Source of the DNA: a virus
Virus genome (UHGV): UHGV-1365016
DNA length: 46,873 bases
Direction: 5' to 3' (one strand)
Part shown: in pieces, positions 9,622-45,446 of the stretch
How positions within the stretch are numbered: the stretch's first letter is position 1
Layout: each line of letters starts with the position of its first letter
Made by a program: the position numbers and the translations under genes
The notes under the pieces: model-generated
What the model was told of the DNA's origin: nothing
The model's input: only the letters and a program-made list of their open reading frames with translations
Database searches by the model: none

Positions 9622-10047
9622 TCAATCCACATCAAAAGGCAAGCCAAAATAGAAAAGCGTGGCTTTTTTTAGTTCATCAAGGCCGTAAGCGATGGCAGCA
9701 TAATGACCAAGCCTGCACATCTCAGTTAACACAGCAGATTGATCCTTGCTAACCCTGCTTTTGCTTTTATCGCGGCGCTTTGACTCAATCATTCCGCAAC
9801 TGTGCTTCACTCCCGGCGTCATTATCACATTGTCGCCTATCCCAGTCTTAACCCCCATCTTCTGGCGCTTCAGCACAAACTGCACCATGCTTGATGTGCC
9901 AGTTTCGTTGGGTACATGAAACCACAGAACATCAGGGAAGCGGTGTTGCATCCATGTGCCGTAACCCATCTGGTCAGTCTCCTCTTTTGGGCATTCTCCG
10001 CGATAACCGCTATCAAATACCCATATACCGCTATCAAGCTGTTTCAC
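9622..10047 (-). CDS. VRR-NUC domain nuclease
   Basis: FHVPNETG...GVKTGIGDNVIMTPG...GMIESKRRDKSKSRVSKDQSAVLTEMCRLGHYAAIAYG matches the VRR-NUC PD-(D/E)XK pattern (PNE...GxxxGxPD...E.K...S..Q). Confidence 0.65.
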   Translation of the reverse strand: MKQLDSGIWVFDSGYRGECPKEETDQMGYGTWMQHRFPDVLWFHVPNETGTSSMVQFVLKRQKMGVKTGIGDNVIMTPGVKHSCGMIESKRRDKSKSRVSKDQSAVLTEMCRLGHYAAIAYGLDELKKATLFYFGLPFDVD

Positions 10048-11956
10048 TTTGTTCTCCTATGAAATCCTTGCGGTGGATGATATCGCGGCCTTTATCATTG
10101 ATACGATGCGTGATGCGTTTTGGCGCTTTAATCAATCCCGCATACATCATGAATTGCTTGGCGTTCTGGCATTTCAGGATTTTCCCAGCCATTGACTTAT
10201 CATCAAGGTGAGGAAATATAGCTTTTGCTTTGAACATGTTTTTCATGTGAGTTGCGCCGCCGTAAGGGTAGAAAACCTCGTTAGCCCATCCTTCTTTTCC
10301 ATCACAACGATTAATCCAGTAGCGATACAAAATACCCTCTCCGTCCTTCGTTAGCTGGACTTTGAAATCCATAACATCAGCCCACTCGTTATCGGTATAC
10401 GCACGCTCATTCAGTGCCGCATTCGGGTCTCGCAAAACGTGATCGCAATGTCGGCAATAGCGCGCCGTTGGGTCGTTTTTGGTGCCGCAACCATCATCAA
10501 AAATCCGGATTCCATGCTTATCAAAACCGCAACGGATATAACTGAAGAACTCCTCGCAGCGACCATCTGGAGATAGTGGGTCTTTCCCGATGCATCGACG
10601 CGCATATGGACTATTCATTGTTCCGCATTTCGGACATTGAACCTGTTCGCCGCTACGTTTTGAGCGTTGCGCTTCAGCTTCTTCCAGGATTGGGTCCTCG
10701 TAGAGCTGACCAAGTTCAAACATCGTGCCAGAGAAATCAAGGACCAGATGGTCTTCTTTATGATACCCGGCATCAATTTGCTCTTTCTTCAGCAGGCGCA
10801 TACCGCGACCAAGAAGCTGGACAAGGAGAGTTAGCGACATTATTTTTCGTAATATGCAGCTCGTATCCCATAGCGGAATGTTGACGCCAGTGGTAAGGGC
10901 TGCTATCTGGAATGTGAATTTTTTGCGCCCTGTGTATGCATCTTTTAGAGCCTTCCTTCTGGCTTTTGGCCCCATATCTTCTGTAACTATTGAGTAGCTT
11001 CCTTCAGGTAGGTATTTTGCCGCCTCCTGACAGTGCTTCTTGCCAGCACATGTAATCAATACTCCGTTTCTGTTTTTAGTAAGCTCCATCACTTTAAGCA
11101 TGATTTTCTGTGTAAGAGTTCCTTGCTCAAGGATTTCTTTCTGCATCTGCTTGAGTTGTTCTGCGGTGAAATCCTGAGTGCCATCAACATCTGAACCATG
11201 AAACTCAGAAAGATCATAATGCAGGCTGTCAACATCATGAAGACCAAAAATTGTTGGCACAAGAAAACCGTTTTCAACCATGTACTTGGTGTCTATATTG
11301 ATAATCTCTTTCTTCCAGAAAGCACCTTTTATTGATGTAGTGCCGCGGAACGGTGAGCCTGTATAACCTATTATTCTCAACTCATGGTCGTACTTATCTT
11401 TGCACCTTTTCATTAGCTCATTAATTATCACTGCATACTGCGTATCACCATCATTAACAACATCAATGTCATTAACCATATGATTTTCGTCTATCAGCAG
11501 GAATCTCGGGCAAAAGTCAGAAAGCGCACCTTTTGCAACAACATTCCCTGATTCATCCTTTTTATCAAACAAAGCATTTACAACAGTACCCTCAGAACCA
11601 CAGATTATTGGATACGTAGAACTTTTCCTCCCCAACGAAGCACTGAATAGCGAGTTTCTTACGCCAAGCGACCATAGCTCTTCCGCATCTTGCTCCACTA
11701 TTTCGCCCTGTCTTGATAGAATCATCCCTGAATAGCCCATTTCCTGAAAACGTTTTGCTATCATGGCAATCATCAGTGACTTTCCGCTACCGACGCTTGC
11801 TGTTACATAGCTAGGCCCAACATAATGACGAATCACATCACCAGTTAACTTATATATCAACCACTGATAGGGTCTTGGCTCGATATCACCAGTATCCAGA
11901 TAGGATTTCAGCAGATTAATATCAATCTCTGAAATCATTTTGTCTATTTTATGCAT
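10034..11956 (-). CDS. Superfamily-2 DEAD/DEAH-box DNA helicase with C-terminal Cys-rich zinc-finger region
   Basis: Motif I ASVGSGKSLMIAMIAKR, motif II LLIDENHMV, C-terminal CPKCG...CRHCDH. 640 aa. Confidence 0.7.
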   Translation of the reverse strand: MHKIDKMISEIDINLLKSYLDTGDIEPRPYQWLIYKLTGDVIRHYVGPSYVTASVGSGKSLMIAMIAKRFQEMGYSGMILSRQGEIVEQDAEELWSLGVRNSLFSASLGRKSSTYPIICGSEGTVVNALFDKKDESGNVVAKGALSDFCPRFLLIDENHMVNDIDVVNDGDTQYAVIINELMKRCKDKYDHELRIIGYTGSPFRGTTSIKGAFWKKEIINIDTKYMVENGFLVPTIFGLHDVDSLHYDLSEFHGSDVDGTQDFTAEQLKQMQKEILEQGTLTQKIMLKVMELTKNRNGVLITCAGKKHCQEAAKYLPEGSYSIVTEDMGPKARRKALKDAYTGRKKFTFQIAALTTGVNIPLWDTSCILRKIMSLTLLVQLLGRGMRLLKKEQIDAGYHKEDHLVLDFSGTMFELGQLYEDPILEEAEAQRSKRSGEQVQCPKCGTMNSPYARRCIGKDPLSPDGRCEEFFSYIRCGFDKHGIRIFDDGCGTKNDPTARYCRHCDHVLRDPNAALNERAYTDNEWADVMDFKVQLTKDGEGILYRYWINRCDGKEGWANEVFYPYGGATHMKNMFKAKAIFPHLDDKSMAGKILKCQNAKQFMMYAGLIKAPKRITHRINDKGRDIIHRKDFIGEQSETA

Positions 11957-11959
11957 AAC

Positions 11960-12607
11960 TCACCCTAAATTAATAAACTCTTTATGGTTAGCAACCATGA
12001 ATTCACGAATCGCCTTTTCTGCTGATTCTATGGTGTCAAATAAACCAAGATGAACCCTCTTCTTGTTTATTGATGTCTGCGCCCTCCATTTGTTGCATCT
12101 TTTATCGAAATGCACACCTTTTACACCAGATTTATTTGTTGATTTCTTTTTCATGTTGAACATGTTTTGTTGGTGACTAGAAATCCTAAGGTTGCAAATT
12201 CTATTGTCTGATTTATCACCATTTATATGGTCTATTTCATACCCATCAATATCTTCCCCATAAACATAAATCCATGCCAGCCTATGAGCTTTCCTTAGTT
12301 TTCCTAGTAGCGTGATGGTAATGTACCCTGCCTTATTCTTATGCCCAACAACCTTGCCTTTACGCCAGAGTGTTCCATGTGTTTTTGCAGCTGTAAAGAC
12401 GCCAGTCTCTGGGTTATATTCAAGATATTCCATTATCTGTTTTTGAGTTATGAATTGGGCTTTTCTTCTGTCTATGCTTGCGCAATCTGCACTTTCCTGA
12501 GCAACATTTTGCTTTTGCAGTTCCGATAAACTCATTTCCGCAAACCTCGCACTTCTTAACGGTGATAGCCATTTCTTACCCTCTATTGTAACGATTAATT
12601 GTTTCAT
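11960..12607 (-). CDS. HNH homing endonuclease (NUMOD4-like N-terminus, HNH core, AP2-like C-terminal DNA-binding domain)
   Basis: EIDHINGDKSDNRICNLRISSHQQN is an HNH motif. The C-terminal KGVHFDKRCNKWRAQTSINKKRVHLGLFDTIESAEKA is an AP2-type domain. It is paralogous to 40868..41368. The start is ambiguous: there are internal Met codons, and 20-bp duplicated start contexts. Confidence 0.75.
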   Translation of the reverse strand: MKQLIVTIEGKKWLSPLRSARFAEMSLSELQKQNVAQESADCASIDRRKAQFITQKQIMEYLEYNPETGVFTAAKTHGTLWRKGKVVGHKNKAGYITITLLGKLRKAHRLAWIYVYGEDIDGYEIDHINGDKSDNRICNLRISSHQQNMFNMKKKSTNKSGVKGVHFDKRCNKWRAQTSINKKRVHLGLFDTIESAEKAIREFMVANHKEFINLG

Positions 12608-12679
12608 TGCAAGTAACGATTGATTGTTTCATGTGGGTAAATTACAATGATTCTACATCATCGTCAACAGGAAGATTTT

Positions 12680-13633
12680 ATGAGATACGACTGGAAAGAC
12701 ATTGAGCCAAAAATGCTCGGCAACTGGCAGGCTGCCATCATGTCTATTGTCAATGTGGATAGCAGAGTTTTCAATGGCAAGCACCAGCCATGCCCGTCAT
12801 GCTCAGGCAAAGACAGGTATCGTTTTGACGATAACTTCGAAACAAAAGGCGACGGCGGAGCAATATGCAATCAGTGCGGTTCCGGCAGCGGCATGAACTG
12901 GCTGATGAAGCTATCTGGAATGAACTTCCCTGAAGCTCTTGAGGCTCTTGGTGGATTCCTGAATATGCATCCACGCGAAAAACTGGATGCGATCAGGAAG
13001 GAACTGCCGAAGATAAATCACAATGACGACTTCATCACCGAGCAGGAAGTCGCAGAAATCATGTCTAAAACGACGCGTGTCGCGATGAATGAGTGGACTT
13101 TGATAAATGGTATTGGTTGTGACGTTAATGTCGCCAGAGGTAAAACTGGAGAGCTTATTGCGGTTGAGATGATGCGTGCTGACACAATGAAGCCGTGCAA
13201 CGTGGCATTCATTGGCATGGATGGTGATGTGTTCAGAACATTCTACAAAGCAGGATACAACAAAGACTCAGCCATCAACGGCAAACTCACACGCGGCGCG
13301 ATAAGCCCAATTGGAGAAGATAACGGCAAGTTCATCTACCTGGTATCTGATTATGCCGATGCGTGGAAGTGCCATTACTTCACTGGCGCTCACGTCTGGT
13401 GCTGCTGGTCGCCGGAAAACATGTGGGAAGTGATGCGATCGGTTAGCGATGAGACGAAAGCACGGTTACGCTGCATAATTAATTATAAATTTGATGAACT
13501 GTGCGCAGCAGAAAATGCAGGACTCCCGGTGATGCTGCCAGACGACTCAGACACAATCAGAATGGCTAAGAGGATCAGAAGAAAGATTTATGACGCTGGC
13601 GAACTGATAGGAAAGATGTCGGTTAGCATATAA
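12680..13633 (+). CDS. DNA primase (zinc-ribbon primase N-terminal domain)
   Basis: CPSCSGKDRYRFDD...CNQCGSGSGMNWLMKLSGMNFPEALEAL resembles the zinc-binding domain of phage primases. Start set at ATG 12680, which has an AGGAAG RBS, rather than 12647, which would overlap a promoter-type motif. It is the only + strand gene inside the - strand replication operon. Confidence 0.5.
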   Translation: MRYDWKDIEPKMLGNWQAAIMSIVNVDSRVFNGKHQPCPSCSGKDRYRFDDNFETKGDGGAICNQCGSGSGMNWLMKLSGMNFPEALEALGGFLNMHPREKLDAIRKELPKINHNDDFITEQEVAEIMSKTTRVAMNEWTLINGIGCDVNVARGKTGELIAVEMMRADTMKPCNVAFIGMDGDVFRTFYKAGYNKDSAINGKLTRGAISPIGEDNGKFIYLVSDYADAWKCHYFTGAHVWCCWSPENMWEVMRSVSDETKARLRCIINYKFDELCAAENAGLPVMLPDDSDTIRMAKRIRRKIYDAGELIGKMSVSI

Positions 13634-13662: not shown

Positions 13663-13676
13663 TTATTCATTTCACG

Positions 13677-14138
13677 CTAACAAAGTCCTAGCCTTTTCCT
13701 TTCTTCGTAAAGAGCATATTCTGGATTGCCAGTTTTCCTGTAGAGATTATCCTTCAACCTTAAAATCTCTTTTGTTGTTGCCGCCACGCCTGAGACAACA
13801 GTTTCTCCGAACAAGTCAGAATCACTCAATGACTCAAGTTTCACCATGTCGTTAAAGTATCCATCTTTTCTCGTCGCATGAAGAGCAATAAGATATGGTT
13901 TGCTTCTCTTATTCTTCACCCAATACACACGGTTAACGCCATCAAGATAGCCGCAACTCATTGAGCGCGCCACAAACTCTCGTGATAGGCCAAGTGCAAG
14001 CTCGCCAATATCGACGCCAATTTGTTCAGCCATTCTTTTGCACTGTGTATTGCCAATTACAAATCTCTCAAGCTGAACCCTTGTGAAAGTTGCATTTCCT
14101 TCGCAGAATTTAAATATTGATGTTTTCATATTTATCAC
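13677..14138 (-). CDS. Hypothetical protein
   Basis: 153 aa. Its start overlaps the upstream gene stop (ATGA). Confidence 0.35.
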   Translation of the reverse strand: MINMKTSIFKFCEGNATFTRVQLERFVIGNTQCKRMAEQIGVDIGELALGLSREFVARSMSCGYLDGVNRVYWVKNKRSKPYLIALHATRKDGYFNDMVKLESLSDSDLFGETVVSGVAATTKEILRLKDNLYRKTGNPEYALYEERKRLGLC

Positions 14139-15706
14139 CTAATAAGTTCAGGGTTTACATACACATTACTATCAACAACGCATACCATGTTCATGCTCTC
14201 AAGCTGTGGAAGTAATTGCTCCTTTATTTTTTTCGAAATCCCGCCCTGTGCCCTGAATGGTTTAACTTTCCTTGCTTTTTCAAGTACTCTTGACATGCTT
14301 ACGTAACCCTTAGATTGTCTTGCCAGCTCTATCGTTATTTCTGATAGCTTTTTCAGCTCAACTTCCTCACCAGCAGACCCTGATGATGTTGTTGCTGCAA
14401 CATATGATTCAATTAACTCACCAAAAATAGCGAGCGCCTCTTCTGCTGTCTCAGCAGAAATGACCTTTGCTTTCTCTTCTCGACCATCAGGTGAAAACCA
14501 ATTGCGTATTACGTGAAGTACTGATGCAATCCTTACAACCTGCTTATCCATCTTCCCGATCATGCCTCTTAGCATTGAATGCCCATAAAGACCGCCATCA
14601 GCCATGTGTGGCTCTGCCTGTTGCCTTGCTGAATAAATTGCCATTATCGCCTCCTGCTCAAGAGACAGAACAACCTTTTCTTCAGTCATAATGTTGTGAA
14701 TGAGTCTGTAATATTGAGACATCAACTCTTTATCAATTGGTGTATATGCTGGCGTTCCATCGTCATTTATGAACACGCGCTGACCAAGCATTGATTTTTC
14801 ACGAAGCAGGAGGAATCGCTCACTAACACCATTAGACCTTTCACCAACCTGCATGATTGAAAGCACGGTTTCATCCTGAGCTATAACATTTATGCAACCG
14901 TTTGCAACAAATGAAAGGTTGTTTGAACCGTTAGCTCGCGCTGAAGAAACGTATTCCATATCCCACGCCTTAAGAACTGTCTCGCAGCTTGCTGTGGAAT
15001 TGGCATTTGAGTAAGTAAGGCCAAGCAATGTATTAACAGCGGTAGCCTCAGCAGAAATAACGGCAAATGACCCCTGAAGAGCGTTAAGCCTGCTCAATCC
15101 TTCAGGTGTTGAGTCTGTCACCGGGAAAACAATATCACCCAGTTTTTCAATCTCGTTTTCCAGTTTTTCCTTATCTTCGTACATGATAGCCAGTGCGGTT
15201 TTGTTTTGTTCTGATTTTATCTCCCTCTCAATCTCGCGCAGCTTGGCTAATTTTCTTTTTCTCTCCTTTCTTCTCACCTCATTAATTCTCTCATTCTCAC
15301 AAACAAGAGGTGCTGTAGAATATTGGTTTACGGAACTCTTACCTGTTGATGGTGGCTGGCTAATGACAACATACAGTGATGTTGGTTGTTCGCTACCGTG
15401 ATAGTTAACAAAAAATCTACCAAGCATGGCTGCTGAAACGCTGCCTAAAAAATTAAGATATACAGAAGAAGCAGGAAATTGTATTGATTTTGCAATATTT
15501 CTCGATAGCTTACCTACAACATCAATATCATTACCAATGCATACGTTTGTATAGCCAGCATCATTATCATCAAAGTCCTTTGGTGAGTGCCAGTATTGCC
15601 GTGACGCTCCATATCCATTTGCTTCTATTGCAACACTCAGAACGGAACGCTTGCTTTTTGCTGCCATCTCAACAATATCTTCTGGCATTAGCTTTTTCTC
15701 AAACAC
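14135..15706 (-). CDS. P-loop NTPase, DUF3987/D5-like putative replicative helicase or primase-associated protein
   Basis: 523 aa. It has a Walker A-like VVISQPPSTGKSS and a charged coiled segment. It sits in the replication operon next to the primase gene. Confidence 0.4.
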   Translation of the reverse strand: MFEKKLMPEDIVEMAAKSKRSVLSVAIEANGYGASRQYWHSPKDFDDNDAGYTNVCIGNDIDVVGKLSRNIAKSIQFPASSVYLNFLGSVSAAMLGRFFVNYHGSEQPTSLYVVISQPPSTGKSSVNQYSTAPLVCENERINEVRRKERKRKLAKLREIEREIKSEQNKTALAIMYEDKEKLENEIEKLGDIVFPVTDSTPEGLSRLNALQGSFAVISAEATAVNTLLGLTYSNANSTASCETVLKAWDMEYVSSARANGSNNLSFVANGCINVIAQDETVLSIMQVGERSNGVSERFLLLREKSMLGQRVFINDDGTPAYTPIDKELMSQYYRLIHNIMTEEKVVLSLEQEAIMAIYSARQQAEPHMADGGLYGHSMLRGMIGKMDKQVVRIASVLHVIRNWFSPDGREEKAKVISAETAEEALAIFGELIESYVAATTSSGSAGEEVELKKLSEITIELARQSKGYVSMSRVLEKARKVKPFRAQGGISKKIKEQLLPQLESMNMVCVVDSNVYVNPELIR

Positions 15707-15716
15707 AGAGCACTCC

Positions 15717-15938
15717 TTATTTGATGCGGGTAATTTTCAATTCGTCTTCGCGCAGGCGAGTAACAAACATTAGCGAGTGATCGTTTGCTGCTTTGTTCAG
15801 TGCAGCTCTGACACCTGCAACAGTCATGCTCCTTTCTGATATTTCACCTAACGCAATAACACATTCACCACCAACATCTACGAAGCGAACTTTATCCCAT
15901 ACAAATTTCATACTTGAGCCTGCACGGTAGTCTTTCAT
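15717..15938 (-). CDS. Hypothetical protein, first gene of the leftward early operon
   Basis: 73-aa ORF directly downstream of the divergent control region. Confidence 0.35.
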   Translation of the reverse strand: MKDYRAGSSMKFVWDKVRFVDVGGECVIALGEISERSMTVAGVRAALNKAANDHSLMFVTRLREDELKITRIK

Positions 15939-16129
15939 GTCAAATCCTCATTCTGGAATATGTATATTACTATATAGAAAACGATTGGGCACTTCAATAC
16001 CGCTGCGCTTAAATCACAAAGGTAATTGATAGCACGAATTGCTAAATATGACGCTTCCTGTTTATGAGTTTCGTGGTATATTTCATTAATCAACACGTAA
16101 GTGATTGACCGCAAAGAGAAAAACAACAA

Positions 16130-16560
16130 ATCCCGCCCAAAAGCCCTGAAAAATAGGGCGAAAAATTCCAGATAAAAATCAATAAGTTACAAAACATTCG
16201 CCCATTCATGCCCAAAAAAAGGGCGAAACATTTCATATTAAATTCAGCAACTTAACTAATTTCCGCCCATTTTTGGTGGGTGGGTGTATGTATACATCGT
16301 ATAAGAGAGAAAAATAGTAGATATGAAATGAATGCATATATGGGGTGTGGGCAAGGTGGGCAAAAGGTATGGTATGAGCGAAAACGAACATAGTTAGTTA
16401 GTATGATAGATAGACATAAGTAAGTATAAATAACTAACAATATTAATAACTTACATGTATATAATACTTATTATTACTTATTATCTATAAGAGAAAACAG
16501 ATCAAAAAATGATCAAAATTTTCGCCCACAACTTAGGGCGAACATAGGGCGACGGTGGGC
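16130..16560. repeat. Iteron cluster flanking a roughly 130-bp extremely AT-rich stretch: candidate replication origin and divergent early control region
   Basis: At least seven copies of (T/A)NGGGCGAA, in both orientations, lie at 16132, 16156, 16197, 16221, 16263, 16521, 16536 and 16547. Three copies of GTGGGCAAGG lie at about 16347, 16356 and 16554. The AT-rich core spans 16381..16500. Confidence 0.5.
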
Positions 16561-16605
16561 AAGGTTGGTCGTAACGGCAAATCACTGCGACAACTGAAAA
16601 TTGTG

Positions 16606-16634
16606 TTGACGTAGAATCACAGCTGATGTAGATT
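16606..16634 (+). promoter_or_regulatory. Sigma70-type early promoter TTGACG-N17-TAGATT built from two tandem copies of the TTGAYGTAGAT element
   Basis: TTGACG at 16606..16611, a 17-bp spacer, and TAGATT at 16629..16634. The first rightward gene starts at 16665. Confidence 0.55.
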
Positions 16635-16664
16635 GAACTCATCGAAACAAACGATGGTGAAGAG

Positions 16665-16810
16665 ATGAAAATCAAAGACCGTGAAGAATTTGAAGATGCA
16701 CAGGCTATGGCGCGCATTGCAGTTAATCGTCAGAACAACAGCATTCCTGCAGATGCATTCTGGAACGCAGCAATGCAGGCTTTAATCTCAGCGTATGGGT
16801 TAAGCAAATG
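16665..16810 (+). CDS. Hypothetical small early protein (48 aa)
   Basis: ATG preceded by a GGTGAAGAG RBS. First ORF after the promoter. Not in the supplied ORF track because it is under 60 aa. Confidence 0.3.
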
Positions 16811-16992
16811 ACAGCAGCATCTTTCTAACTCATCGCCAGTCTGGTTATCGTGGCATTCATCATTATCGCAGTGGCAGTTTCTAAATCAGGGCATAAGGAG
16901 TAACAAAAATGAGCAACTGGCATAACGAGCACATCATGCAGTGGTATCGTCGCCGCATTAAGGAAATCATCAATTCATACGAGGCGTAACAA

Positions 16993-19012: not shown

Positions 19013-19459
19013 ATGGCTAATCCAAACCCTGTAATGAAATTTTCCTCTGAGTACCAGCCAGCTGGCAGAGGATTAAGCTACAGAAACAGGCTAATTGAAG
19101 CATTAAAGCGTTGCGGGCTTGGTGAGGAGGAGTTCCTTGACGCATTCATCAGAACGTCAATCAAGATGACTGAGGAAAACCCGACTCAGGGCGTACAGAT
19201 GCTGAAGGAAATATTCCTGCGCATCAGCCCCGTACAAAAAAGCATGGCGCCTCCTGTTAATTTTAAATACCGCAAAGATGCCACGCCAGTAGAGCAGATA
19301 GAGGATGTCATTCAATCTGTTTCCAGTGGGGAGCTTCCAATAGATGTGGCGTCTCAGGTTGTATCAATGATTAAGGTTGGCCTTGACGTGAAAGAATTAA
19401 CCGAACTCGCCGCACGCCTTGAGCGACTGGAGAAACTGCTGGAGCAACAGAATGGATAA
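19013..19459 (+). CDS. Terminase small subunit
   Basis: 148 aa, directly upstream of the large terminase gene, with a helix-rich N-terminus and C-terminal coiled coil (LERLEKLLEQQ). Confidence 0.5.
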   Translation: MANPNPVMKFSSEYQPAGRGLSYRNRLIEALKRCGLGEEEFLDAFIRTSIKMTEENPTQGVQMLKEIFLRISPVQKSMAPPVNFKYRKDATPVEQIEDVIQSVSSGELPIDVASQVVSMIKVGLDVKELTELAARLERLEKLLEQQNG

Positions 19460-21439: not shown

Positions 21440-21467
21440 ATTCTACGTCACCAACATATCTACGTCA
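21440..21467 (-). promoter_or_regulatory. Leftward sigma70-type promoter TTGACG-N16-TAGAAT formed by two tandem ATCTACGTCA copies
   Basis: On the - strand, the -35 TTGACG is the reverse complement of 21462..21467 and the -10 TAGAAT is the reverse complement of 21440..21445. Confidence 0.5.
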
Positions 21468-21506
21468 ACATTTATTATTGTTGTTGATAAATCTGCATCA
21501 CCACAC

Positions 21507-28677: not shown

Positions 28678-29159
28678 TTAATCTCTCCATTCAGTTCATT
28701 AACAATTAACGTCGCATAGCCAGCAATATCCTTCCAGCTATCGTCATAGGTCGGGTCGCCATTCAGGATGCGCCCAATCTTGTGCTGAATCATGTCTAGC
28801 GCCTCACGCTGGCTTGGCGTCAGGTTGTGCCAGCCATCCACTTCGCGCATCACATCTTTCAGTTCCTGCATAATTTCAGCGCCATCTTTGAATTTGCCAT
28901 AGCGGCTACCGCGCTCGGTAATGAGTTGCTCTGTTGCGTCAGCTTCCGGTACACCAATGCAATCGTTGAGGTCTTGCTCGTCGGTGATTCGTTCGCGGTG
29001 TGCTATCAAGGTGAACAGTTCCTTATTGATCGTCCGCGGATTGTTCGTGAATGTCACCCAGCCATTTGTTTTGTGTACGAAGGCATAAGTATCTTCATGG
29101 TGTGCACCATCAAAATCGTCAACACTACCCATCAGCAATTTATATCTTACTGGCATCAC
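28674..29159 (-). CDS. Hypothetical protein
   Basis: 161 aa, acidic. Confidence 0.35.
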   Translation of the reverse strand: MMPVRYKLLMGSVDDFDGAHHEDTYAFVHKTNGWVTFTNNPRTINKELFTLIAHRERITDEQDLNDCIGVPEADATEQLITERGSRYGKFKDGAEIMQELKDVMREVDGWHNLTPSQREALDMIQHKIGRILNGDPTYDDSWKDIAGYATLIVNELNGEIK

Positions 29160-29679: not shown

Positions 29680-29884
29680 GGAGCGCACAATGACAACTGA
29701 TGAGCTGTACGAAAAATCGTTAATTCAGCGACTGAATGAAGTTGAACGCACTCGCGAGTGGCTTGAGTGCGAACTGCGGGAAGTGCGCAACCGACTGCAA
29801 CGCAAACGCAGTCAACAGAAGGATGTTATCGACTGGTCTGGCGATACGCCTAAATTTAATAATCTTGGGGAGTGGTTGAAATGA
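29666..29884 (+). CDS. Hypothetical coiled-coil protein
   Basis: 72 aa. Confidence 0.3.
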   Translation: MVNFEERTMTTDELYEKSLIQRLNEVERTREWLECELREVRNRLQRKRSQQKDVIDWSGDTPKFNNLGEWLK

Positions 29885-30098
29885 GAAAGTTCAGCACGTT
29901 AGTTGACTTAATTTTCGCTGACATTAGTGAGTCAAACGCCAGAAACAAGAAATCAAGAAATCAGCGGTAGGATATTACGTTTCGCACACTACTTAAGCAA
30001 TCGATGCGTGGCAAAAAGGAATGGAGATACAGGCGCGACCGAGTCCTGATAAAGCTGTGCAAGTTGAACATGAACAAGATACTTAAGGATATGACCAA

Positions 30099-30350
30099 AT
30101 GACTGCACCATATATGCCAATGATGAATGACAACGGGTTGCTGGAGTGCCCATTCTGCGGCTGTAATGAGGTTGGTATTGCTGTCGATGAGGATGGGTGG
30201 GAGTACATTGAGTGCGGTGATTGCTATTGCCGTACAGACGCATTCCGTAACAGAGAACTAATGACTAAGTCATGGAACACCAGAAATGGCCATCTCTACA
30301 CCGCAGAAGACTTCAATCAGGCAGCCGAGGAGCGCGAACATGGACTATAA
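30099..30350 (+). CDS. Lar-family-like zinc-ribbon protein (putative restriction alleviation)
   Basis: LLECPFCGCNEVGIAVDEDGWEYIECGDCYCRTDAF. The CPFCG...C..C arrangement resembles the Lar restriction-alleviation family. Confidence 0.4.
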   Translation: MTAPYMPMMNDNGLLECPFCGCNEVGIAVDEDGWEYIECGDCYCRTDAFRNRELMTKSWNTRNGHLYTAEDFNQAAEEREHGL

Positions 30351-30828
30351 ATCACAAATCATGCGCGTGATTATCAATCATCCAGGCGCAACGCGCGCAT
30401 ACATTGAGAAGCATTGCGGCGGTAAGCATTCAAGCACAACAACGCATCGTTTGCATGAGATGCTCGCATTGGGATTCATTCGCCGCGAGAAGTCAGTGAT
30501 TCGTGGTGGCAAGTGGCAGTATAAATATTTCATCTCTGATGATGCAGCGGGTATTGATGATGCTATCCGGTGTCATTTGCTGGACAATGCTGGCGCTGAG
30601 GTGAAAGAAATCAGCGCATCCACTGACATTGATTACCGAATCGTGAAAAGCCGCATCCGCATTATGTTTCATAACGGTGATGTAACGCGAAGCTATGACC
30701 ACCACAAGAAGCTATGGCGTTACTCATGGCGTGAGCAGGAGGTTAACGTCGGCAACATGTTTAATTCACTTCTTCGCAACGCAAGAGGTTATCATGGGAA
30801 AAGCGAAACGCAAGAAGCAAGAGTATGA
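30340..30828 (+). CDS. Winged-helix-like DNA-binding protein (candidate regulator)
   Basis: Start at ATG 30340, overlapping the upstream stop. IMRVIINHPGATRAYIEKHCGGKHSSTTTHRLHEMLALGFIRRE resembles a MarR/wHTH. Confidence 0.3.
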   Translation: MDYKSQIMRVIINHPGATRAYIEKHCGGKHSSTTTHRLHEMLALGFIRREKSVIRGGKWQYKYFISDDAAGIDDAIRCHLLDNAGAEVKEISASTDIDYRIVKSRIRIMFHNGDVTRSYDHHKKLWRYSWREQEVNVGNMFNSLLRNARGYHGKSETQEARV

Positions 30829-44729: not shown

Positions 44730-45446
44730 ATGCAAAACATGAGCAATCGCACGCCACTAACAGAAATCGGAGAGATGCGCATCTCGCTTTCCGACAGGAG
44801 TTTTTTCTTTAAGCCATCATTTCGTGCCATGAATGAAATCGGCACCCCAAAAGAAATCGTCGAGGTGTACGCTAAGCTCAATGGCATTGATTATGTTGCG
44901 CCATTGCAGCACGTCGAATACCTGCCATTTGGCGCGCAGATGCAGGTTATGAAAACCATCAGCAAACCAGTGTTTGGTCGCCATGTGCTGAGTGCGGCCT
45001 ATATCGTCATGCAATCATGCTGCGAAGATGATATCTCTGTGCTGATTGGTGGGTGGAAGCCAACGCCGCGCGGCGTGCGATACGTACCTGGCATTATGCC
45101 AGTGAGCGACATTATTATTATTGCGCGAAACCTGATGGAGCACGGCATCATCGGCAAGTCACCACTCAAAGTGCCTGAGCGTCTGGAAGAGCAGGGCAAG
45201 AAAACCACAAACGAATTTCATGCGTCGCAATACATCATCTCAGCACGCACGCATTTCGACATGACGCGCGATGAGGCTGAAAACCTGTCCATGACAGAGT
45301 TTCAGATGATGATTAAGAATAAATATCCAGAGCCGAAAGGGCTAACAAAAGAAGAACGCGCAGCCGAGTACGATCAGGCCAAAGCAGACCGCGAGCGCAT
45401 GAAGGCACTGGCTGAACGCAAAGCGAAAAAAGCGAGGAATACATAA
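44730..45446 (+). CDS. Tail assembly chaperone
   Basis: 238 aa, immediately upstream of the tape measure gene with TAATG overlap. The C-terminal region is Lys/Glu-rich. Confidence 0.4.
   Translation: MQNMSNRTPLTEIGEMRISLSDRSFFFKPSFRAMNEIGTPKEIVEVYAKLNGIDYVAPLQHVEYLPFGAQMQVMKTISKPVFGRHVLSAAYIVMQSCCEDDISVLIGGWKPTPRGVRYVPGIMPVSDIIIIARNLMEHGIIGKSPLKVPERLEEQGKKTTNEFHASQYIISARTHFDMTRDEAENLSMTEFQMMIKNKYPEPKGLTKEERAAEYDQAKADRERMKALAERKAKKARNT

Follow-up and report, generated by a model that had tools for sequence, protein, structure and literature searches.

Helicases that recognise their own origin of replication have precedents in the Rep protein of the staphylococcal pathogenicity islands (SaPI), the alpha protein of P4, viral E1 and large T antigen. 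In P4, short octamer iterons are read by the C-terminal winged helix of alpha, a helicase-containing initiator in which primase and an SF3/D5-like helicase are fused, and the repeats lie at two separate sites (ori and crr). The SaPI Rep protein is a self-loading helicase whose C-terminal winged helix acts on 5-6-nt iterons flanking an AT-rich centre, and it melts the origin without a loader (PMC9371898). In lambda-type origins iterons also adjoin an AT-rich region, and the replication modules are exchanged among related phages; these iterons are 18-19 bp long and lie within the O gene, and a dedicated initiator recruits the host DnaB through P (PMC7466680, PMC11447400). The iteron plasmids pSC101, R6K, RK2 and P1 carry arrays of initiator sites beside a DNA-unwinding element, often with a site for integration host factor (IHF) and possibly with autoregulation, and their Rep proteins are winged-helix initiators without helicase activity that usually need the host DnaA and DnaB (PMC4980987). 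Here we compare these systems with a 726-bp intergenic gap in the virus genome UHGV-1365016 (46,873 nucleotides, the whole of which is called the window below), for which an earlier reading of the letters alone (the sequence-only reading) had proposed an iteron origin with a DNA-unwinding element between divergent promoters.

This proposal was supported by every comparative test that we ran. In relatives of the window the repeat changes whenever the adjoining MCM-like helicase changes, and the gap is therefore most likely a replication origin. The arrangement that we consider probable is that of iterons, an AT-rich unwinding element and further iterons, placed between two promoters that fire outward.

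The iteron array and the AT-rich block

The gap extends from the ATG of a 73-aa open reading frame (ORF) at 15938 on the minus strand to the start of a 48-aa early gene at 16665 on the plus strand, limits that had been given before and that the ORF list bears out. Exact copies of GGGCGAA numbered five within 16156-16542 and three in the remaining 46 kb, which makes eight in the window against 4.4 expected window-wide. With the pattern GGGC[GA][AG], 11 sites in both orientations were counted within the 434 bp of 16131-16564, at 16131 (-), 16154 (+), 16196 (-), 16219 (+), 16261 (-), 16347 (+), 16356 (+), 16520 (-), 16534 (+), 16545 (+) and 16555 (+). This clustering is far from random: 9 of the window's 30 GGGC[GA]A sites lay inside 450 bp, a concentration that none of 20,000 random placements equalled in permutations. 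A naive genome-wide finder of repeated hexamers was dropped as a method; it chose the gap in the window and was undiscriminating in Segz_1, SB28 and T1.

The sites form three groups. The left cluster (16131-16270) holds the five sites from 16131 to 16261 together with a weak minus-strand GGGCAT near 16208-16213. Its centre-to-centre spacings of 23, 43, 22 and 43 bp correspond to about two and about four helical turns, which would place the sites on one face of the DNA, and it is underlain by a 65-bp direct repeat (16149-16206 and 16214-16271, 74% identity). The second group consists of two tandem iterons on the plus strand, GTGGGCAAG and GTGGGCAAA, at 16347-16365, which abut the AT-rich block; the equivalent place in the relative L018 (L numbers are our designations of compared records) carries three tandem sites of the TGGGCGAAA type. 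The tight right cluster (16520-16564) contains the remaining four sites at spacings of 13, 11 and 10 bp, and its stretch 16513-16546 is invariant in L015 and L016. Of the 11 sites, seven thus lie left of the AT-rich block and four right of it, and either side has sites in both orientations; those directly adjoining the block run + + on the left and - + + + on the right.

The AT-rich block itself, the proposed DNA-unwinding element, occupies 16381-16500 and includes the 100 bp that are richest in A+T in the whole window. The sequence-only reading had described it as about 130 bp of some 85% A+T, and it is indeed the most AT-rich region, although its length is 120 bp and its content 80.0% A+T, with a core of 83-84%. 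The short A/T repeats reported within it, TAGTTAGTTAG, GATAGATAGA, TAAGTAAGTA and TTATTACTTATTAT, were located at 16391, 16405, 16417 and 16471. The repeat counts needed some correction. Seven copies of (T/A)NGGGCGAA had been claimed, a number that is reached if one or two mismatches are allowed, whereas four are exact and a fifth reads GTGGGCGAA; of three reported copies of GTGGGCAAGG, those at 16347 and 16555 are exact, whereas the tandem partner at 16356 is GTGGGCAAAA. The earlier observation of clustered iterons with an AT-rich block is therewith confirmed as real.

The repeat type and the adjacent helicase

The window is a siphophage genome segment of ~46.9 kb whose kin are phages of Salmonella, Escherichia coli and Shigella from the Skatevirus, Segzyvirus and Macdonaldcampvirus cluster, to which it is 87-90% identical over ~60% of the first 25 kb. 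When the gap was compared with a phage collection by blastn, in near and distant modes, matches were confined to the promoter-proximal 60-80 bp. Since the sequence between the promoters could not be aligned beyond close relatives, homology of the arrays was judged by position and architecture. In each of 23 distinct homologous gaps, one of six hexamers was present in 5-12 copies while the other five were at about zero, and all 23 contained a 100-bp block of 81-87% A+T. The repeat was (C)GGGATAA in Skate, GGATAAA in Segz_1, LPST10 and VSt472, CCGGTAAA in Bas77 and Bas81, CCGGTAAC in L033, GGGCA(C/T)A in SB28, CGTGGGG(C/A)A in IME207, DS8 and four metagenomic relatives, and CGGGAAGC in Sf11 and L036. 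As a candidate specificity switch, the difference between CGTGGGGCA and CGTGGGGAA was rejected, because it is degeneracy inside one array type whose helicases are 99-100% identical.

Close relatives have kept the iterons and not lost them. The four phages with helicases 81-99% identical to that of the window (L015, L016, L018 and L019) all carry GGGCGAA arrays with their GGGC cores beside the helicase gene, and L018 does so although the early promoter and early genes across the gap differ. Among four close relatives, the GGGC cores varied at 2 of 44 positions versus 150 of 618 in the rest of the gap (Fisher p=0.0013), as would be expected if the iteron cores were under purifying selection.

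With more distant helicases the repeats were different ones. GGGCA(C/T)A accompanies the SB28 helicase (69% identical) and CGTGGGG(C/A)A the DUF3987 helicases of the IME207 group (33% identical); the 495-aa Skate-type helicase is paired with GG(G)ATAA, the 526-aa Bas77-type helicase with CCGGTAA, and a PrimPol-PriCT2-DUF3987 fusion with CGGGAAGC. The 495-aa and 526-aa proteins match only the helicase half of primase-helicase PHROGs. In blastn, the window and Segz_1 were 86-91% identical up to 13674 and from 16600 on, with nothing aligning between, and against SB28 only 13686-15640 aligned (69%). Relative to Segz_1, 13675-16599 was replaced as one unit, an exchangeable replication cassette that comprises an ORF resembling T1 ST10, the DUF3987 helicase, the small 73-aa ORF and the array with its AT-rich block.

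Other genes did not follow the repeats in this way. The small ORF upstream of the helicase has only 42% identity in L018, whose iterons are those of the window; Segz_1 and LPST10 have unrelated small ORFs, and the ORF lies in a segment that was replaced in L030 and L037 relative to IME207, with helicase and iterons the same in each of the latter two comparisons. The downstream ORF is 50% identical in L018, which shares the iterons of the window, and 57% identical in SB28, which does not. The early genes are ~90% conserved across phages of different repeat types, and the terS-like ORF is 99% identical in DS8 and 98% in SB28, which have other iterons, and 45% identical in L029, which has those of DS8. 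A host factor is an unlikely reader, since the repeats differ among phages that share hosts. Taken together, the repeat type follows the clade of the adjacent helicase and no other gene that we compared. The earlier suggestion that the protein encoded at 14135-15706 binds the array fits this pattern, and a cognate initiator of the kind expected for an iteron origin is thereby indicated by comparison among phages.

This protein of 523 aa (14135-15706, minus strand), the proposed initiator-helicase, matches Pfam DUF3987 (E=7e-37, 127.8 bits against a cut-off of 27) and PHROG 2373, 'DNA helicase'. DUF3987 proteins are superfamily 6 (SF6), MCM-like helicases which have a winged helix-turn-helix at the C terminus and are associated with primases (PMC4889955), and helicase activity has been demonstrated for one of them (PMC11724360). 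An AlphaFold2 model of the protein had a predicted local distance difference test score (pLDDT) of 89.9 and a predicted template-modelling score (pTM) of 0.87, and the top 50 Foldseek matches listed were MCM2-7 subunits or MCM hexamer complexes. The sequence-only reading had placed a D5-like P-loop protein in the adjacent operon, but the protein is of the DUF3987 MCM-like type (SF6) with a C-terminal winged helix and is not D5-like. A phmmer search of the helicase against all chains of the PDB gave no match with E<0.6, the presence there of the SaPI Rep1 and PriRep5 cryo-electron microscopy chains being unconfirmed.

The C-terminal domain (residues 440-523, 14138-14389 on the minus strand) is the proposed reader of the iterons. 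Modelled alone, these last 84 residues gave a pLDDT of 88.6 and the topology H-b-H-H-b-b, with Foldseek matches to E2F/DP, Stn1, the winged-helix domain of MCM4 (template-modelling score 0.71) and forkhead; the E-values were weak (>=0.02), a common outcome with domains of this size. Compared with SB28, the N-terminal 80 and C-terminal 120 residues of the helicase were 48-65% identical and the winged-helix region 50-65%, versus 75-88% in the ATPase core, so that the iteron-reading domain is probably a terminal one. Whether helicase or gap is dispensable is not stated in the text of the seszw genome-reduction paper (PMC9825161).

From these data we infer a mechanism in which the DUF3987 helicase would recognise the GGGC(G/A)(A/G)A repeats, most likely via its C-terminal winged helix, and would assemble on both sides of the AT-rich block. 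IHF bending in the left cluster would assist, and the IHF site described below could fold the sites together, while transcription from the divergent promoters would supply negative supercoiling. The helicase would then melt the AT-rich block and load itself, upon which the phage's DnaG-type primase and the host DNA polymerase III would begin bidirectional synthesis.

A number of observations concern the annotation of homologous gaps. In their AT-rich or iteron part, several gene callers and existing records annotate small proteins as 'hypothetical' or 'membrane', as in Skate (L002, 2207-2446, CPT_Skate_081), Bas81 (L001, 2421-2546, Bas81_0088), L012 (2911-3021 and 3117-3233) and L018 (1397-1813); because of the repeat architecture there, these calls are probably spurious. 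The linear record of Akira (L007, NC_054647.1), with its helicase at 499-2043 and its early promoter at 45125-45185, is cut within the equivalent gap, in which it carries two 'repeat_region' features (104-128); the cut may be arbitrary or may reflect mapped ends.

Flanking promoters, neighbouring genes and alternative readings

On the right, a consensus scan placed a sigma-70-like early promoter, TTGACG-17-TAGATT, at 16606-16634 (plus strand); this promoter and the first early gene recur in 154-155 phage records with ~90% conservation. Another copy of this promoter (TTGACGTAGATATGTTGGTGACGTAGAAT, two mismatches) is found at 21440-21468 on the minus strand with no iteron repeats near it, and Segz_1 has an equivalent copy. 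On the left, TTGAAG-17-TATAGT at 15969-15997 (minus strand) is a candidate sigma-70 promoter by consensus match, nearly invariant in L015, L016 and L019. Pattern matching also gave an IHF-consensus site, AATCAATAAGTTA, at 16177-16189 (plus strand) between an inverted pair of iterons. The consensus was not significant alone (4 observed versus 2.9 expected) and was used only as a positionally conserved feature; a AATCAAnnnnTTA site is also present in the gaps of SB28, Skate, Segz_1, LPST10, Bas81, L018 and L019, and thus in relatives' gaps that do not otherwise align.

At 16029-16046 (plus strand) lies a T1-type 18-bp box, ATAGCACGAATTGCTAAA, an imperfect inverted repeat (AGCAC-GAA-TTGCT). Its 16-nt core, AGCACGAATTGCTAAA, is exact in SB28, L015, L016 and L019-L021 and has multiple copies in T1, TLS and Stevie; the copies recorded are those in T1 (L022; 3535-3552, 4344-4361, 4864-4881 and 6531-6548), TLS (L043; five) and L005 (two). 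In nine distinct copies from T1 and TLS a -10-like hexamer follows exactly 22 nt downstream, with the box centre near -42, and these boxes look like an activator-dependent class of promoter. The single box of the window has no -10 at the 22-nt distance, and neither the window nor SB28 encodes a homologue of the 'transcriptional regulator' T1 ST23 / TLS gp57. In the Stevie annotation the boxes are labelled only 'repeat_region'.

The first rightward early gene (16665-16811, plus strand, 48 aa, from the ORF list) matches PHROG 2180 and is conserved in relatives. The first gene of the leftward unit, the 73-aa ORF (15717-15938, minus strand, from the ORF list and its translation), has a weak match to PHROG 28700 and only two homologues in a word-index search, both near-identical. 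In IME207 (gp85, L008 2524-2796) and DS8 (L009 2525-2797) the small ORF between helicase and array is instead a stand-alone AP2-like domain, kin to the AP2 modules of HNH homing endonucleases (Pfam AP2 E=7e-4, PHROG 99 E=3e-13). Downstream of the helicase, the 153-aa ORF (13677-14138, minus strand; PHROG 2794) is a homologue of T1 ST10 and TLS gp70, with 37-39% identity in tblastn. The zinc-ribbon, DnaG-type primase (12647-13633; Pfam Zn_Ribbon_Prim, PHROG 510) had been assigned to the leftward operon, but it is encoded on the plus strand and therefore falls outside that operon; it is also outside the swapped cassette, with 86% nucleotide identity to Segz_1. Between it and an SNF2-type helicase gene (10034-11956) sits an HNH-AP2 homing-endonuclease gene (11960-12607, minus strand); Segz_1 lacks a match to its 5' part (~11966-12495), which points to a mobile insertion. 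The terS-like ORF just upstream of TerL (19013-19459), the putative small terminase, is mosaic and varies independently of the replication cassette, being only 35-45% identical to those of Skate, LPST10, Segz_1, L029 and L030. A search of the gap against Rfam gave nothing meaningful; its sole match was to a miRNA family with E=0.42, far under the gathering score.

The location of the array, between a candidate leftward and a strongly conserved rightward promoter and close to a T1-type regulatory box, would also suit a purely transcriptional element, in which the repeats are operators for a cassette protein (for example for autoregulation by the helicase) and replication starts elsewhere or by recombination; plasmid iterons commonly serve as autoregulatory sites as well. 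However, no site overlaps a core promoter: the closest one ends 41 bp short of the rightward -35, and 134 bp separate the leftward -35 from the site nearest to it. The second early-promoter copy, moreover, lacks such repeats nearby. Operators would have no need for a repeat-flanked AT-rich block, yet such a block is kept in 23 of 23 gaps, and the partner that tracks the repeats is a replicative helicase and not a regulator, so that we regard this explanation as unlikely. Quite unlikely, too, is an origin whose iterons are read by the 73-aa or the 153-aa ST10-like protein, which would then recruit the helicase much as lambda O recruits P-DnaB. Both small ORFs sit inside the swapped cassette, the 73-aa ORF evolves fast (36% identity to that of SB28), its IME207 equivalent has the weak match to an AP2 DNA-binding domain, and a DUF3987 helicase and an ST10-like protein occur together in T1, TLS, SB28 and the window; but neither ORF tracks the repeat type in the comparisons with L018 and SB28, between Segz_1 and LPST10, or of L030 and L037 with IME207.

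For a packaging region of the pac or cos type, in which the repeats would bind the small terminase with the help of IHF after the model of lambda cosB, one can point to the IHF-consensus site among the repeats, to the terminase genes that start ~2.4 kb rightward, and to the Akira GenBank record that is cut inside the equivalent gap. The array is, however, inherited with the helicase and not with the packaging genes, and the uncoupling of the type of terS-like ORF from the repeat type disfavours such a site, which leaves this idea very improbable. That the repeats arose by chance or through low complexity in a rapidly evolving spacer, and have no sequence-specific function, has next to no plausibility in our view: the gap outside the promoter is indeed unalignable by blastn to most relatives, but the sites cluster far more than chance would allow, their cores are better conserved than the flanking sequence, and parallel arrays of other motifs occur in every homologous gap.

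Several considerations count against an origin read by the helicase. The data in which the six hexamers were counted had also served to define them, and the phages compared are related, so that the associations between repeat type and helicase are not independent events. In the PrimPol-type gap of L036 the AT-rich block lies beside the repeats and not between them, and in T1 and TLS the arrays lie ~14 kb from the helicase gene, which means that adjacency is not universal. The first 80 residues of the helicase have diverged as quickly as its winged helix, so that either end may read the iterons, and cellular MCMs do not use their winged helix to read origins. In the GC-skew check that had been proposed, the cumulative G-C curve reaches its window-wide minimum at 16268; this is consistent with an origin, but it coincides with the switch of coding strand and is thus no independent evidence. 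The array could also, or instead, regulate both promoters, and the support for an origin comes throughout from comparative evidence and structural prediction. With these points taken into account, a helicase-read origin is still what we consider probable.

Comparison with described replication systems

The closest relatives of the helicase family are found in the T1-like phages (Drexlerviridae), whose DUF3987 helicases are 46-57% identical and which also carry the 18-bp box and an ST10-like ORF. A repeat/AT-block/repeat array is likewise present in both T1 and TLS; these arrays differ from that of the window in lying upstream of recE, away from the helicase gene, and in their repeats, GTGTAACAG in T1 and TGTTC(A/C)A in TLS. 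In T1 (L022, NC_005833.1) the gap between cor and the recE-like exonuclease gene (29851-30377) holds all three genome copies of exact GTGTAACAG together with several TGTAAC variants, flanking a very AT-rich block at ~30000-30075, and is a candidate T1 origin. In TLS (L043, NC_009540.1) the gap upstream of recE (28707-29117) has TGTTC(A/C)A, TGGAACA and GTGAACA on both sides of an AT-rich block. The 2024 re-annotation of TLS reported no iterons anywhere in its genome (PMC11447400).

A wider idea, on which we are evenly divided, is that the DUF3987 helicases of enterobacterial siphophages are self-loading initiators, each with an iteron of its own, that are exchanged as specificity cassettes, and that T1-like origins likewise lie at the arrays upstream of recE. 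The iteron may then be read via a terminal DNA-binding domain, with at least six specificities on one Skatevirus-like backbone. If true, this would be an MCM relative in bacterial viruses that unites ORC-like (origin recognition complex) and MCM-like roles in one polypeptide.

In the literature that we searched, no origin was described for the Skatevirus-like cluster or for T1-like phages. The kind of element, iterons with an unwinding element and a helicase-initiator, is well known, and it is so far unannotated in this phage group. Siphophages of the Skatevirus-like and T1-like groups are often considered for therapy and biocontrol, and a defined origin with its cognate helicase would offer a handle for phage-dependent replicons and for replication incompatibility among co-infecting relatives. 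It would also permit a direct test of self-loading at origins by DUF3987 proteins, a family that is widespread and occurs in satellites and integrative elements too, while at least six natural repeat/helicase pairs on an otherwise ~90% identical backbone form a ready set for mapping specificity determinants. The interest of the locus rests mainly on this natural series of specificity cassettes and on the testable idea of DUF3987 self-loading.

Set beside the described systems, the region is neither a lambda-type nor a DnaA-dependent origin. It shares with lambda the iterons beside an AT-rich region, the exchange of modules and a likely contribution of nearby transcription to opening, whereas here short repeats lie between genes and go with a helicase of the phage. 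The plasmid Rep proteins usually need DnaA; in the window, DnaA boxes (TTATNCACA) are not enriched: the gap has one match with one mismatch, and window-wide 48 were observed versus 52 expected. P4 is enterobacterial, and its primase has a zinc ribbon of the Pfam family Zn_Ribbon_Prim, as has the primase of the window; in contrast to P4, the window has a separate DUF3987/MCM-like helicase and a single array around one AT-rich block.

The likeness to SaPI goes further. In both, short repeats (5-6 nt in SaPI, a 6-7-nt core here) are present in ~6-12 copies and in both orientations on both sides of an AT-rich centre, with at least two iterons on each side and opposite orientations, as in SaPI origins. 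In either system the adjacent gene encodes an AAA+ helicase of hexameric type that has a C-terminal winged helix, a separate primase is encoded nearby, and elements differ in repeat specificity in step with their helicases, here as judged by comparison. The SaPI origin lies immediately downstream of rep, whereas the array here is upstream of the helicase operon, across the 73-aa ORF; SaPI are Gram-positive satellites, whereas the window is a virulent enterobacterial siphophage; and the helicases have no detectable sequence relationship, with the fold here closest to MCM. Given the lack of sequence kinship, the MCM-like fold and the upstream position of the array, the helicase is not a member of the SaPI Rep family. 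Altogether, the comparison is consistent with the view that the region works, by analogy and without homology, like the Rep/ori system of SaPI.

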